Positions 31,512 through 35,644 of a stretch of DNA of 36,873 bases are shown piece after piece. The DNA comes from Thermovirgaceae bacterium (GTDB taxonomy: Bacteria; Synergistota; Synergistia; Synergistales; Thermovirgaceae), in assembly GCA_046542505.1 (NCBI GenBank), contig JBKHBH010000010.1, forward strand, positions 1 to 36,873, given 5' to 3'. The notes beneath the pieces are model-generated. The model searched no databases. It was not told where the DNA came from and saw nothing but the letters and a program-made list of their open reading frames with translations. The stretch's first letter is position 1, and each line of letters opens with the position of its first letter. Both the position numbers and the translations under genes were made by a program.

Positions 31512-33233
31512 CTATTTCCCCTGTTCCAGGGGCTGATTCCTGTATTTGAGGAAGTCGTACATGAAGATCAAGTTCAGGACCAGCATGGCGATTTCGATGA
31601 CGAGCACTGTTATACCCGTTGCAGGGTCGGACTTGATGGTGGCCGGCAGTGCCACGGCGCTGAACCAGATGATAGCAGCCGTAACGGTGATCCACAGCAG
31701 GTAGGCCGGAATGGTGCAGATCGCCGTGGATTTGCACTCAAGTCGCTTCGAGACCCATGCCGCGCCGGTCAGAAGCGTGATGGAAGCAATAAGCTGGTTT
31801 GCCGAACCGAAGGACGGCCAGAGGAGCGCGAAATTCCCGCTCCACGCGAGGTAGATCCCGATGGCTGCCGGAATGATGGAGGCCACCCAGGGGTTGGTCA
31901 AAAAGTTGTAAGCTCCTGACCCTTTTTCCTTCAGCGGCATCGCGATTTCCGAAATGGTGTACCTCGCGAGACGGTTTGTCGTATCAAGGGTGGTCATGGC
32001 AAAAGCGGCAACCCACATTCCAGCGATCACTTGGACCAGGCTTGTGGGAATGAAACCAAGCCAGGTGCTTGCCACCATCCGGGCGAAAGAATGGGAGAAC
32101 ATGACGGCGTTCGGGTAGGAAGCCGACATGGACTTGACATACTGGTCGCCCCAGTTCGCCACGGTGATGCTCTCTCCGGCATCCTGCATCAGCTGGAGGC
32201 CGAATCCCGCCACGGCTGCCACTACTAGGGTCGAGAGGAAACCTTCCGTCAACATGCCCCCGTAGCCGATAGGAAGACCGTGGCTCTCCTTTTCCAACTG
32301 CTTGGAGGTTGTTCCGGACCCGACCAGGGAGTGGAAGCCCGAAAGAGAACCGCAGGCGATAACCAGGGGAATCACGGGCCAGAAAGGACTCGGCTTTCCT
32401 CCCGTCACGATCGGTGCGAAGGACGTAAAAGCCGGTGCAGTGAAGCCGTGGAAACTAAAAATTGCCGCAAGGGCTCCAAGGGCCAGACCGAAATACAGTA
32501 GCCAGGAATTCAGGTAGTCCCTCGGCTGCAACAGGACGTCCACGGGGATGGCCGCGGCGATGATGATATAGAAGAACAGGATGACCATCCAGGTACTGTA
32601 GCTCATCTCGACGGGCCAGAGGGCACCGCCGTATATCGAGGCGGCGAGCAAGATGACACCGATAAACGTCGCAGCAACGAGGTTCATCTTCACCCGGTAC
32701 ATCAGCACGCCCAGAACCAGTGCTGCGAGGACCATCAGGAAAAATGCCGTCGGGACTTTCGGGTCACCCACGAAGGTTTTCCCGATGACCGCACCGAAAG
32801 CCGCGATAACCAGGATCAAAAGGAAGAAGACGAGCCAGTAAAATAGTTTCCCGGTGCGTTTCGTGATGACGTCGGAGGCGACGAACTGGACGGAGCGGCC
32901 GTCGTACCTGACCGAAGCCATCAACGAAAGATAGTCGTGGACGGCGCCGATGAAAATGTTGCCGAACCACACCCAGAGGAGACCGGGGACCCAGCCCCAT
33001 GCCATGGCAACGACGGGACCGACGATCGGCGCAGCTCCAGCGATGGACGCGAAGTGATGGCCGAAAAGCACAGGCGGTTTCGCCGGGACATAGTCGACGC
33101 CGTCAAAAAGCCGTGTCGACGGCGTTGCGTTTTCGTCAGACGCCTTGACCACTTCTCTCTCCAGTTTCTTGCCGTAAGTCATGTAGAGGAGTATGTAAAT
33201 GGCAAGCCCCGCGACTACAATCAGAGTAGTCAT
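31512..33233 (-). CDS. cstA: Carbon starvation protein A family transporter (peptide/pyruvate)
   Basis: DGVDYVP, LFGHHFASIAGAAPIVGP, GAVHDY, LLQPRDY, IACGSLSGFHSLVGSGTT, TTLDT, LWPSFGSANQL; ATG 33233 with GGGAGG. Confidence 0.95.
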   Translation of the reverse strand: MTTLIVVAGLAIYILLYMTYGKKLEREVVKASDENATPSTRLFDGVDYVPAKPPVLFGHHFASIAGAAPIVGPVVAMAWGWVPGLLWVWFGNIFIGAVHDYLSLMASVRYDGRSVQFVASDVITKRTGKLFYWLVFFLLILVIAAFGAVIGKTFVGDPKVPTAFFLMVLAALVLGVLMYRVKMNLVAATFIGVILLAASIYGGALWPVEMSYSTWMVILFFYIIIAAAIPVDVLLQPRDYLNSWLLYFGLALGALAAIFSFHGFTAPAFTSFAPIVTGGKPSPFWPVIPLVIACGSLSGFHSLVGSGTTSKQLEKESHGLPIGYGGMLTEGFLSTLVVAAVAGFGLQLMQDAGESITVANWGDQYVKSMSASYPNAVMFSHSFARMVASTWLGFIPTSLVQVIAGMWVAAFAMTTLDTTNRLARYTISEIAMPLKEKGSGAYNFLTNPWVASIIPAAIGIYLAWSGNFALLWPSFGSANQLIASITLLTGAAWVSKRLECKSTAICTIPAYLLWITVTAAIIWFSAVALPATIKSDPATGITVLVIEIAMLVLNLIFMYDFLKYRNQPLEQGK

Positions 33234-33275
33234 ACAATTCCCTCCCTTTTTATTAAACATAAAGGCTATGCTATT

Positions 33276-33305
33276 AATTTACGCCCCGCGTGGGGTTTTT
33301 GTCAA
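33276..33305 (-). promoter_or_regulatory. Putative cstA promoter
   Basis: Minus-strand TTGACA (33305-33300), N18, TAAATT. Confidence 0.5.
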
Positions 33306-33549
33306 ATATTACGGCATCCAGTACGCCAACCGTCTTGCATTTGCAGTCCGCAGAATTTGGCATGCAACATTGCAATTTGGCAGGAGGGATCTTTTTTTTT
33401 ATGGCAATATACAGATTTTATATAATAGTGCTTATTTTTAATAGAAGATGAGGATGTTGTCCCGGCCGACATCCTACAGGATAATTGTTTTTAAGAAGAA
33501 TTAGATTGGACCTGCGTAAAGGTGCCTTCACGCGTTTTTAAACTTTCGG

Positions 33550-34380
33550 CTACTCCTGCATGTCGCTTCTTGCCTGCTCCCGGGCTTCTTCCGAAAGGAC
33601 TCTCCCACGCGATGAGGCGGCGCTGATGGCCTTCATGAAAGCCGTCCGGATGCGGCTTTCCTCCAGTTCGTAGATACCGTCGATTGTGACCCCGCCAGGC
33701 GTCAAGACCATGTCCTTGAGTTCCGCAGGATGTTTCCCTGTTTCAAGCAAAAGATATGCGGCACCGATGGCCGTATGTGCCGCTGCCTCCAGGGCAAGTT
33801 TGCGCGGGAGGCCCTCCCGGAGCGCCCCGTAGATCATGGACTCGACGACGGTAAAGATATAGGCCGGTCCCGAACCGGACATGGCGGTCAGTACGTCGAG
33901 GTATTGCTCGTCTACAAGCCGTATTTCACCGGGGATGCGGAGGATTTCCTCGATGAGGCACAGTTCTTCTTTCTCAAAGGATCCGTCGGGAGAGAAGAGG
34001 GTGTAGCCCTTTAAGACTTTTGCTGCAATATTTGTCATGGCTCGGACAAAACGGCATCCTGGCGCGGTCTCATGCAGAATGTCCAGTGATATGGCCGCAG
34101 CAAAGGAAATGACCGGTTTGCCGGCGGAGACGCCGGCGATTTCGCGCAGAACAGGGACAACCTGCGACGGCTTGACGGAAAGGATGATGATATCCGCATC
34201 GGAAGCCGCCTGAATGTTGTCAGTTGTGATGGTGATGCCTTTCTCACCGAGACCGTTAAGACGTTCGAGCTTGCGGCGCGTCGCCGTGACCCGGCAGTAG
34301 GTCGACAGGGCCTCGGCGATGGCCCCTCCGATGATGCCTGCTCCGATGATGCTGACGTGAAGATCTTTCAATTGTTTCAT
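33550..34380 (-). CDS. proC: Pyrroline-5-carboxylate reductase
   Basis: IGAGIIG, LSVKP, ISFAAAI, RAMTN, TAMSGSGPAY, LKDMVLTPGGVTIDG; RBS AAGGAGG. Confidence 0.95.
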   Translation of the reverse strand: MKQLKDLHVSIIGAGIIGGAIAEALSTYCRVTATRRKLERLNGLGEKGITITTDNIQAASDADIIILSVKPSQVVPVLREIAGVSAGKPVISFAAAISLDILHETAPGCRFVRAMTNIAAKVLKGYTLFSPDGSFEKEELCLIEEILRIPGEIRLVDEQYLDVLTAMSGSGPAYIFTVVESMIYGALREGLPRKLALEAAAHTAIGAAYLLLETGKHPAELKDMVLTPGGVTIDGIYELEESRIRTAFMKAISAASSRGRVLSEEAREQARSDMQE

Positions 34381-34402
34381 TCCTGTTCCCTCCTTTTGGA
34401 AT

Positions 34403-34438
34403 AAAAAAGGGCCGCCGACCCGGAAGTCGGCGGCCCTT
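34403..34438 (-). terminator. Attenuator terminator in the proC leader
   Basis: Minus strand AAGGGCCGCCGAC-TTCCGG-GTCGGCGGCCCTT then TTTTATT, directly before the proC RBS. Confidence 0.9.
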
Positions 34439-34484
34439 GTGTCCAGATGATCTTGAAAAAACTAAAACGCTATCAGGACATGAC

Positions 34485-34568
34485 CTACCCTCCCCGGGGA
34501 GAATTTTCTCCGGAACGCGGTGGAACGCACGGGTTGGGCCTGGCTGTCCTGATAAAGAGAATATGCAT
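34485..34568 (-). CDS. Proline-rich leader peptide of proC (27 aa: MHILFIRTARPNPCVPPRSGENSPRGG)
   Basis: GGAG 7 nt upstream of ATG; 5 Pro codons (CCC, CCG, CCA, CCG, CCC); stop codon lies inside helix segment 2. Confidence 0.7.
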   Translation of the reverse strand: MHILFIRTARPNPCVPPRSGENSPRGG

Positions 34569-34611
34569 TGTTTGTCTCCATTTCAGTTTTCGGTGAAAAG
34601 TATTGGAAAGA

Positions 34612-34640
34612 AGGATATCCTCTTTCGCAAAGGACGTCAA
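34612..34640 (-). promoter_or_regulatory. sigma70 promoter for the leader-proC transcript
   Basis: Minus-strand TTGACG (34640-34635), N17, TATCCT (34617-34612). Confidence 0.65.
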
Positions 34641-34702
34641 CGGCCAATTTGGGCACTCGAGCCGGAAGCCTGTAAACTTGATCAAAGGCTGGAGGTGATT
34701 TG

Positions 34703-35644
34703 ATGTCCGAAAAACAGGCAGTCTTTTTCTTTTGCGTGGAAGAACCCCATAATCACGTGGCGGGATCCGCCTTCGCACGCCTTTTTTCACTTTACCCCAT
34801 GGAGGAGGCTGGGTTTGAAATCGACGGATACCCGGTGCTGCAATGCCGGGACAGTGAAGGGAACCGCCTGTGTTTTTGCCGCCAGAAGGAGCTTGTCAGC
34901 TACGATTTCCGTCGGTACCTGCCACAGCTACGGGAATATTTCCAGGACTTCGACCTGGCGGCTGAAGTCAACTGGCACGAGGGAGCCAACGCCCCTGACA
35001 GGGTCCTGACGGTTCACACCATCGGAGATGTCGAGGCGGGTGTATACACGCCCGCCAACCCGAGGCTTTTCAGGAACCTTCTCCTTTCTCTCGAATCGGA
35101 ACGCCAGCGTGCCGGTCTCGATGATTTTACCGTGGTTACCGAAGCCACGCACTGGACAGGTTCATTCAAGGGGCAGAATCCCGAAGACTTGAGAAAGTGG
35201 CCGGTGCCGATGGTGGATATAGAAATCGGCAGCACGCCGCAGGTATGGGAACACCCGGAAGCCGTGAACGTCCTGGCAAGAAGCCTCTTTGGCGTATTCG
35301 GGAGTGATGAAGTCCTGGATCCCGTCCTGTGCGTGGGGGGAGTCCATTTCGAGCGTTCGTTTTGCGAAGCGGCGAAGAACCGGGAGTATTCTTTTGGAAT
35401 CTCTCATATCCTTCCAAACCAGTGGCTGGTGAGCGGAGGGTACGACAGTGAGAAAAACTTCTGGAAGATAGAAGCCGCGGCTTCCAGTATCGGGGACAAC
35501 CTCAGGGCGGTGGTTTTTCATGAAGGAATCAAGGGTCCCTATCGGGATGCGAGCAGGAGACTTGCCGAAGCCAGAGGTATTCCGGCCATCAGGCACAAAC
35601 ATTTGCGCAAGCCCGAAAACCTTGACTGGATACAGTTACTGTAG
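34703..35644 (+). CDS. dtdA: Archaeal/plant-type D-aminoacyl-tRNA deacylase (DtdA/DTD2/GEK1) homologue
   Basis: W-H-E-G...VLTVHTIG, TEATHW, DIEIGS, VGGVHF, SHIL; RBS GGAGGTG. Confidence 0.75.
   Translation: MSEKQAVFFFCVEEPHNHVAGSAFARLFSLYPMEEAGFEIDGYPVLQCRDSEGNRLCFCRQKELVSYDFRRYLPQLREYFQDFDLAAEVNWHEGANAPDRVLTVHTIGDVEAGVYTPANPRLFRNLLLSLESERQRAGLDDFTVVTEATHWTGSFKGQNPEDLRKWPVPMVDIEIGSTPQVWEHPEAVNVLARSLFGVFGSDEVLDPVLCVGGVHFERSFCEAAKNREYSFGISHILPNQWLVSGGYDSEKNFWKIEAAASSIGDNLRAVVFHEGIKGPYRDASRRLAEARGIPAIRHKHLRKPENLDWIQLL

Follow-up and report, generated by a model that had tools for sequence, protein, structure and literature searches.

In the Thermovirgaceae bacterium (phylum Synergistota) whose contig JBKHBH010000010.1 provides the 36,873-nucleotide stretch of DNA analysed here (the window), the gene of pyrroline-5-carboxylate reductase, proC, does not follow directly on a promoter. 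It is preceded by a promoter-like site, a short open reading frame (ORF) containing several proline codons, and an intrinsic terminator placed immediately ahead of the proC Shine-Dalgarno (SD) sequence. This raises the question of how RNA polymerase gains access to proC and of what the short ORF may report to it. As argued below, the element is probably a classical ribosome-mediated leader-peptide attenuator, by which proC would respond to the supply of charged tRNA-Pro. For the ribosome as a metabolite sensor, leader-peptide attenuation is the textbook case, and its general mechanism is set out in two articles (PMC9413887; PMC1183508).

The leader unit upstream of proC

All the parts of the leader lie on the minus strand of the window. 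The promoter-like sequence, TTGACG-N17-TATCCT (34612..34640; -35 element at 34640-34635, -10 element at 34617-34612), fits 9 of the 12 consensus positions; the consensus scan finds three such sites in 33200-35000, as compared with 1.4 +/- 1.3 in shuffled sequences. Downstream, a GGAG SD motif (34576..34579) can be read ahead of a leader ORF of 27 codons followed by TAG (34485..34568; ATG at 34568, TAG at 34487-34485), the predicted product of which is MHILFIRTARPNPCVPPRSGENSPRGG. This ORF has five Pro codons, at positions 11, 13, 16, 17 and 24. The first four form the cluster P11-N-P13-C-V-P16-P17 (34518..34538), and these are the proposed regulatory codons. The intrinsic terminator (34403..34438; hairpin at 34438-34407) has a stem of 14 pairs, 10 of them GC, a 4-nt UCCG loop and a run of T residues (U in the RNA), and its hairpin is predicted at -26 to -29 kcal/mol. 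It is followed by the GGAGGG SD motif of proC (34388..34393) and by proC itself (33550..34380; ATG at 34380), an ORF of 276 codons whose product matches the Pfam families P5CR_dimer (7.1e-35) and F420_oxidored (1.4e-14).

The 232-nt leader folds at -92 kcal/mol (z-score -5.57), and none of 200 shuffled sequences folds as well. The predicted structure consists of a long irregular hairpin, P1, and of the terminator. In P1, 34554-34531 is paired with 34499-34471. Its 5' arm is hereafter segment 1 (UAUCAGGACAGCCAGGCCCAACCC; 34531..34554) and its 3' arm segment 2 (CCCCGGGGAGGGUAGGUCAUGUCCUGAUA; 34471..34499); P1 alone reaches -40.7 kcal/mol (z-score -4.61). The leader stop codon is located within segment 2. 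A third segment (34425..34448), made of the spacer AUCUGGACA and of the 5' arm of the terminator, is predicted to be the antiterminator partner of segment 2 when segment 1 is masked. An earlier note on this DNA had described the promoter, the GGAG motif, the 27-codon ORF with its five Pro codons and the terminator before the proC SD motif, as well as the pairing of segments 1 and 2 and the UAG embedded in the latter; all of these are present at the positions given there, the pairing being part of the minimum free energy (MFE) fold. Searches of the whole window with the Rfam covariance models remained without a match at the gathering threshold. When E values up to 10 were admitted, 13 sub-threshold matches (best E 0.15) appeared in the region 34300-34800; most of them lie over the terminator hairpin, and leader and T-box families are not among them.

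In a search with the 320-nt leader DNA, 16 of 41 related genomes gave matches, and the long ones lie directly upstream of proC. A covariance model named R1, built on the part of the leader that extends from the SD motif to P1, matched 17 of 151 Synergistales genomes, including 11 of 18 in family f1 and 5 of 9 in family f7, and gave no match in f2, f3, f4, f5, f6, f8, f9 and f10. For comparison, proC is present in 79 of the 151 genomes. The gene is directly downstream of 16 of the 18 R1 matches, and the remaining two are near contig ends. Examination by eye of 35 further proC upstream regions revealed eight diverged copies missed by R1, namely those of G010 and G014 (f1, g6), a second copy in G009, G062 (f5), G092 (f4), and G030, G142 and G054 (f4, g17); the other 27 regions were operonic or without a leader ORF. 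The R1 matches and the copies found by eye make up a set of 24 leader ORFs, and the leader unit occurs in four Synergistales families. In an alignment of 11 sequences, the invariant positions are TTGAC of the -35 element, TAT of the -10 element, GGA of the SD motif, TG of the start codon, CCGG, UGUCCUG and a 24-nt terminator core.

A scan of metagenomes gave 17 strong R1 matches, nearly all duplicates of the genome representatives, and six new variants. Among these is L197, the closest relative, whose proC is 91% identical to that of the window. Outside the Synergistota, 77 proC loci (of 80 loci examined) gave no match to R1. Moreover, a crude scan of these 77 loci for a terminator and an ORF with at least three of one residue in seven codons found no leader with a Pro cluster; two loci had an ORF enriched in Ser or Leu.

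The upstream neighbour of the leader varies among lineages, and the leader therefore travels with proC. Another possibility is that there is no switch: the unit, which is self-contained from promoter to terminator, would be an independent small transcript (a small RNA or small-protein gene) that ends at a terminator of its own, and expression of proC would depend on constitutive leak-through or on a promoter that was not recognised. Such an arrangement is very unlikely. The unit always stands directly before proC, with about 10-45 nt from the U-run to the proC start, in different neighbourhoods, and the peptide is not conserved outside the Pro cluster. No promoter-like site was found by consensus scan between the terminator and proC (34381-34406); according to the earlier note, a proC promoter at that place would have spoken against the attenuator.

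Some individual loci deserve mention. In L197, a weak second R1 match (22.7 bits) is found downstream of proC. In G009, proC is present twice, and each copy is preceded by a Pro-cluster leader and a terminator of its own (loci L146 and L127, with metagenome locus L189 alongside). The leader of the second copy, MKKYEASLSDFVPGANPCPADSNQCRAGWSCHFAR, has diverged strongly, and an additional GC hairpin lies between it and proC. In G013 (L027, G013:C95, minus strand, 1-80), which has one of the two R1 matches near contig ends, the 5' end of a group II intron stands after the leader terminator, where the proC SD motif would be expected. The intron matches RF02001 with 62.9 bits and is cut by the contig end. 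Bacterial class C introns insert just after terminator hairpins.

Leader reading frame, proline codons and predicted switch

The SD motif and the start codon are found in all 24 leaders. The open frame extends over 27-35 codons, with 31 codons in 16 of the 24 leaders, and ends in or near segment 2 across copies. Stop codons occur in frame +1 in 19 leaders and in frame +2 in 15. The probabilities of an open frame in shuffled sequences, multiplied over nine lineage representatives, give 3e-4, a value that is partly circular since the ORFs were defined as open. The stop codon lies close to the conserved UGUCCUG motif of segment 2: its last base is 1 nt past the motif in 14 of the 24 leaders, and its end lies from -11 to +12 nt of the motif's end in 21, the three others being the g17 leaders, which do not have the motif. 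The f7 frame has a 7-nt offset with respect to UGUCCUG, and the ORF still has 31 codons. The TAG of the window results from a point change (GGGUUGG to GGGUAGG) with respect to L197, which keeps 31 codons and the usual TGA. Between these two close relatives, almost all of the first ten codons differ, and PNPC[VI]PPRS is kept.

Each leader has from 3 to 8 Pro codons, and a cluster of two to four is located in the 5' arm of P1 in all 24 of them (for instance PNPCVPP, NPSPCPSVVP, NPCPCP, LPCSPRP, LPSPCLPRP and IPSPGSPWGSPGGCPLP), so that the Pro codons on which the earlier note relied are indeed conserved among proC leaders of relatives. The same is not true of the PP motif, from which a dependence on EF-P had been suggested. 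Conservation of PP is limited to most f1 leaders and G062, and the motif is absent in f7, g6 and G092; EF-P dependence is therefore no feature of the family. For the most part, the comparison among relatives that the note suggested favours its reading.

The consequences of a ribosome stalled in the leader were modelled by masking the RNA under a ribosome placed on the last Pro codon of the cluster and by cutting the RNA before the 3' arm of the terminator. In the window, when segment 1 is masked in this way, segment 2 is predicted to pair with segment 3 (-20.6 to -21.3 kcal/mol), which engages 9 of the 13 bases of the terminator 5' arm. The MFE folds of all 24 masked leaders pair segment 2 with the spacer, the 5' arm of the terminator and part of its loop, with energies from -17 to -50 kcal/mol and from 7 of 12 to 12 of 13 arm bases paired upstream. 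Terminators are present directly before the proC SD motif in the 24 leaders, with several different sequences, and the masked pairing is also predicted with the altered terminators of g6, G062, G092, G009b and g17. Segment 2 begins 13-24 nt beyond the last Pro codon of the cluster, and the base of the terminator is 22-48 nt past the stop codon; these spacings give a geometry that fits the attenuation model. Moreover, segment 2 is the best-conserved part of the leader. Its invariant columns, among them CCGG and UGUC.UG (alignments A3 and A4), number about 11, against a single one in segment 1; this is what would be expected if the strand has to pair with either of two partners. The switch is plausible and is consistently predicted by these folds.

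The following scheme can be proposed. Transcription would begin at the conserved promoter, and a ribosome would translate the short leader ORF across both arms of P1. With ample Pro-tRNA, the ribosome would reach the stop codon in or next to segment 2 and cover this segment; the terminator would then form and transcription would stop before proC. If the leader were left untranslated, P1 would form, followed by the terminator hairpin, and transcription would again end before proC. With scarce Pro-tRNA, the ribosome would stall on the Pro cluster in segment 1 and leave segment 2 free. The free segment could then pair with the spacer and the 5' arm of the terminator before the 3' arm is made, so that RNA polymerase would enter proC. 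From the parts of the leader, their order, their conservation and their predicted folds, we infer that the ORF is translated, that ribosomes stall on its Pro codons, that an antiterminator forms and that the switch responds to proline.

Evidence against attenuation and other explanations

Several results weigh against the scheme. The first of them concern the ORF. There is no codon periodicity over its length, since changes among 10 f1 sequences (G002, with a 1-nt indel, was left out) fall 28, 27 and 29 times at codon positions 1, 2 and 3. CCN triplets are in only weak excess in frame 0, with 43, 29 and 40 in frames 0, +1 and +2 of nine lineage representatives; much of the Pro richness therefore follows from the C-rich 5' arm. 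In addition, the Pro codons form a spaced cluster and no run, and a Cys codon is almost equally conserved. Other results concern the structures. P1 does not covary: 82.0% of the cells are paired, as compared with 82.5 +/- 0.5 in shuffles, and a single pair is changed on both sides. The compensatory changes envisaged in the earlier note were thus not found. Slid registers of P1 are 32-55% paired, which shows only that the register is real. With RNAalifold, the covariation term of 11 sequences amounts to only -1.45 kcal/mol. The fold of P1 is exceptional only in the window (z-score -4.6), the z-scores of 11 other leaders ranging from -3.1 to 0.0. RNAalifold also returned a pairing of the -10 region with the proC SD motif, which was discarded, the -10 region being probably not transcribed.

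The pairing of segments 2 and 3, proposed in the earlier note, calls for the same caution. It is predicted once segment 1 is masked, but it is not stronger than the pairings found in controls. When the spacer is shuffled, z-scores range from -0.9 to +1.5, not better than chance. When segment 2 is shuffled, they range from -0.25 to -2.05; all 16 values are negative, none is individually significant and the sequences are related. Finally, the fraction of the terminator 5' arm that is paired upstream is 0.69 in the proC leader, whereas the median is 0.62 and the 75th percentile 0.75 for 518 predicted terminators of the genome.

Conservation at the level of the sequence, in the absence of codon periodicity and with a CCN count in frame +2 close to that of frame 0, could suggest that P1 acts as a structured RNA and is bound by a ligand or a protein, in a riboswitch-like or protein-dependent attenuation. 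In that case, the ORF and its Pro codons would merely be by-products of the C-rich arm, and the invariant CCGG and UGUCCUG could be recognition sites. This explanation is nevertheless unlikely. The SD motif and the start codon are fixed in every leader and the frame that they define is always open, whereas the other frames mostly have stops. The length of 31 codons is kept in f7 despite the 7-nt shift of the frame with respect to UGUCCUG, and the 3' end of segment 2 contains the stop codon. Moreover, an aptamer should show covariation, which P1 does not, and no Rfam model matches.

It can also be asked whether translation of the leader gates the terminator in response to a signal that is not specifically the charging of tRNA-Pro. 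The conserved x-P-C-x-P(-P) core would be an intrinsically slow or arrest-prone peptide that responds to EF-P activity, to the general capacity for translation or to a small molecule within the exit tunnel, as in mgtL/mgtP, pyrL, TnaC or SpeFL. Some observations on the cluster speak for this. A Cys codon follows a Pro codon in 21 of the 24 leaders, with N or S before that Pro in many of them, and VPP is found in most f1 leaders. Codons 13-17 (P-C-V-P-P) have 1, 1 and 5 changes at positions 1, 2 and 3, so that five of seven are at third positions; this is the sole part of the ORF with periodicity. However, no periodicity extends over the whole ORF, and PP is absent in f7, g6 and G092. It should also be noted that the regulated gene encodes the last enzyme of proline synthesis, which fits the sensing of cognate starvation, and that the other leaders of the same genome, described below, obey the cognate-codon rule. 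We consider this alternative rather unlikely, and attenuation in response to charged tRNA-Pro remains the probable reading of the proC leader.

Other leaders of the lineage and known attenuators

Further units of the same build occur in this genome: a promoter, an SD motif and a short ORF with a run of cognate codons stand ahead of a terminator. One of them has the look of a textbook Trp attenuator. On the minus strand of L169 (G000:C3:7236-8855), the ORF MKNKRTRKTSRVNRFWWWR (about 1481-1540) has an SD motif and three Trp codons (WWW). It is followed by two terminator-like hairpins (about 1424-1450 and 1376-1407) and by a gene (127-1332) for a PALP enzyme with a TrpB-like N-terminus. On the plus strand of L170 (G000:C42:12521-13900), an ORF with MMMCMC (about 69-170) and a terminator (about 195-225) precede a gene (280-1290) for an ABC ATPase with a NIL domain, the architecture of MetN-type methionine importers; possibly, this leader senses Met/Cys and attenuates an uptake system. 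L171 (G000:C30:4097-5696, minus strand, leader about 1448-1537, ending in NCFGFYYFSGVEPPLRFDA) and L172 (G000:C88:4227-5776, minus strand, leader about 1396-1485, ending in NWFCFYYYGSVEPPLRFDA) have paralogous leaders, with FGFYYF or WFCFYYY, which have a promoter, a terminator and a conserved VEPPLRFDA tail in common. One precedes an AMP-binding, phenylacetate-CoA-ligase-like gene, and the other a gene for a 394-residue membrane protein with a hydrophobic N-terminus and no Pfam match. They may be aromatic-amino-acid attenuators of salvage or transport genes. Finally, on the plus strand of L019 (G000:C112:11370-14409), the leader MAFRSFGPGFAGSLYRYYYAYHGPVTIRTGTCRPWENAR starts at 1354 and has five Tyr in seven codons (YRYYYAY). 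Its terminator (1501-1540) resembles that of proC, and the genes that follow, from 1559 and 1656, are a small hydrophobic ORF, for a membrane protein, and an SSF (sodium:solute) symporter (1e-27). None of these other leaders of the genome has an Rfam match. Taken together, the sibling leaders appear to be good circumstantial evidence for ribosome-mediated attenuation in this lineage.

An extension of the attenuation model can be considered here. The nearly universal x-P-C-x-P core might be a dedicated Pro-sensing stalling module, in which the Cys between prolines would tune the ribosome so that three or four spaced Pro codons give a sharp response when Pro-tRNA runs short. The proC leader might then be one arm of a phylum-wide attenuator regulon of the Synergistota for biosynthesis (proC, trpB-like), uptake (metN-like, SSF symporter) and salvage (phenylacetate-CoA-ligase-like). 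We mention this extension as a doubtful possibility.

As regards the pathway, neither proB (TIGR01027) nor proA (TIGR00407) was found above cut-offs in this 93.5%-complete genome. Therefore, proC may be its sole dedicated gene of proline synthesis, and the pyrroline-5-carboxylate used by its product probably comes from another route. The divergent neighbour of the leader (34700-35644, plus strand) encodes a D-aminoacyl-tRNA deacylase of the PF04414 type (1e-28), a type that is mainly archaeal, and the nearest relatives of this proC outside the Synergistota belong to WOR-3 and archaea. These relationships hint at an old gene transfer.

The mechanism proposed for the proC leader is that of the textbooks, and its specificity for proline appears to be undescribed. 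Full-text literature searches found no leader-peptide attenuator of proline biosynthesis, although a prior prediction is possible in subscription surveys or supplements (for instance a 2010 survey, PubMed id 20198868). The word proline is absent from the main text of PMC1262725 and PMC4833913 and from that of the genome-wide attenuator survey PMC2965389. The latter states that leader peptides were then known only in Proteobacteria and Actinobacteria, besides its own Firmicute cases. The Synergistetes are treated in PMC9413887, within the sections available, only for the HisR repressor. Thus, if the present reading is correct, leader-peptide attenuation would extend to an amino acid and to a phylum that are new to it.

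Synergistota are amino-acid fermenters of anaerobic digesters, and proline is the slowest amino acid in peptide-bond formation. The proC leader, if it acts as proposed, would mean that a few spaced codons suffice for proline to be the sensed residue. Considered along with the Trp, Met and aromatic leaders, it would provide an annotation rule for many orphan terminators of uncultured lineages; owing to these sibling leaders, the Synergistota are a good test bed.

How the proC leader compares with known systems can now be considered. Proline-specific T-boxes (RF00230) precede proBA or proI in Firmicutes. There, as proposed here, uncharged tRNA-Pro leads to terminator read-through before genes of proline synthesis; unlike the proC leader, however, a T-box binds the tRNA directly and needs no translation. 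A T-box was rejected as a reading of the present element, since there is no match to RF00230 even with E values up to 10 and the leader is too short for a Stem I. The UGGU found in segment 2 is not conserved in f7, G062 and g7.

Leaders in which Pro codons act on gene expression are represented by mgtL and mgtP, upstream of mgtA and mgtCBR in Salmonella (PMC3641672). As in the proC leader, the translation of Pro codons in a short ORF chooses between RNA structures. The proC leader differs from them in that it would control a proline-biosynthesis gene through an intrinsic terminator, and it has no sequence or Rfam relationship to them. The genes governed by mgtL and mgtP serve Mg2+ transport and virulence, and their control depends largely on Rho or on other stem-loops.

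The closest likeness of organisation is offered by the classical attenuators of amino-acid operons, such as trpL, hisL, leuL, thrL, ilvL and pheL of Escherichia coli and Salmonella. Like these, the proC leader has a promoter, an SD motif and a short ORF that carries codons for the pathway's own amino acid in segment 1. An intrinsic terminator stands directly before the biosynthetic gene, and the stop codon is placed so that a terminating ribosome would mask segment 2 and leave the terminator uncovered. Of the alternative pairings, 1:2 and 3:4 are predicted here as well, and 2:3 is predicted at a strength not better than chance. Unlike them, the proC leader has no match to the leader families of Rfam, its regulatory codons are spaced (P-x-P-C-x-P-P) instead of forming a run, and its ORF spans the whole of the 1:2 hairpin; moreover, its amino acid is proline, its target is a single gene and its bearers are Synergistota.

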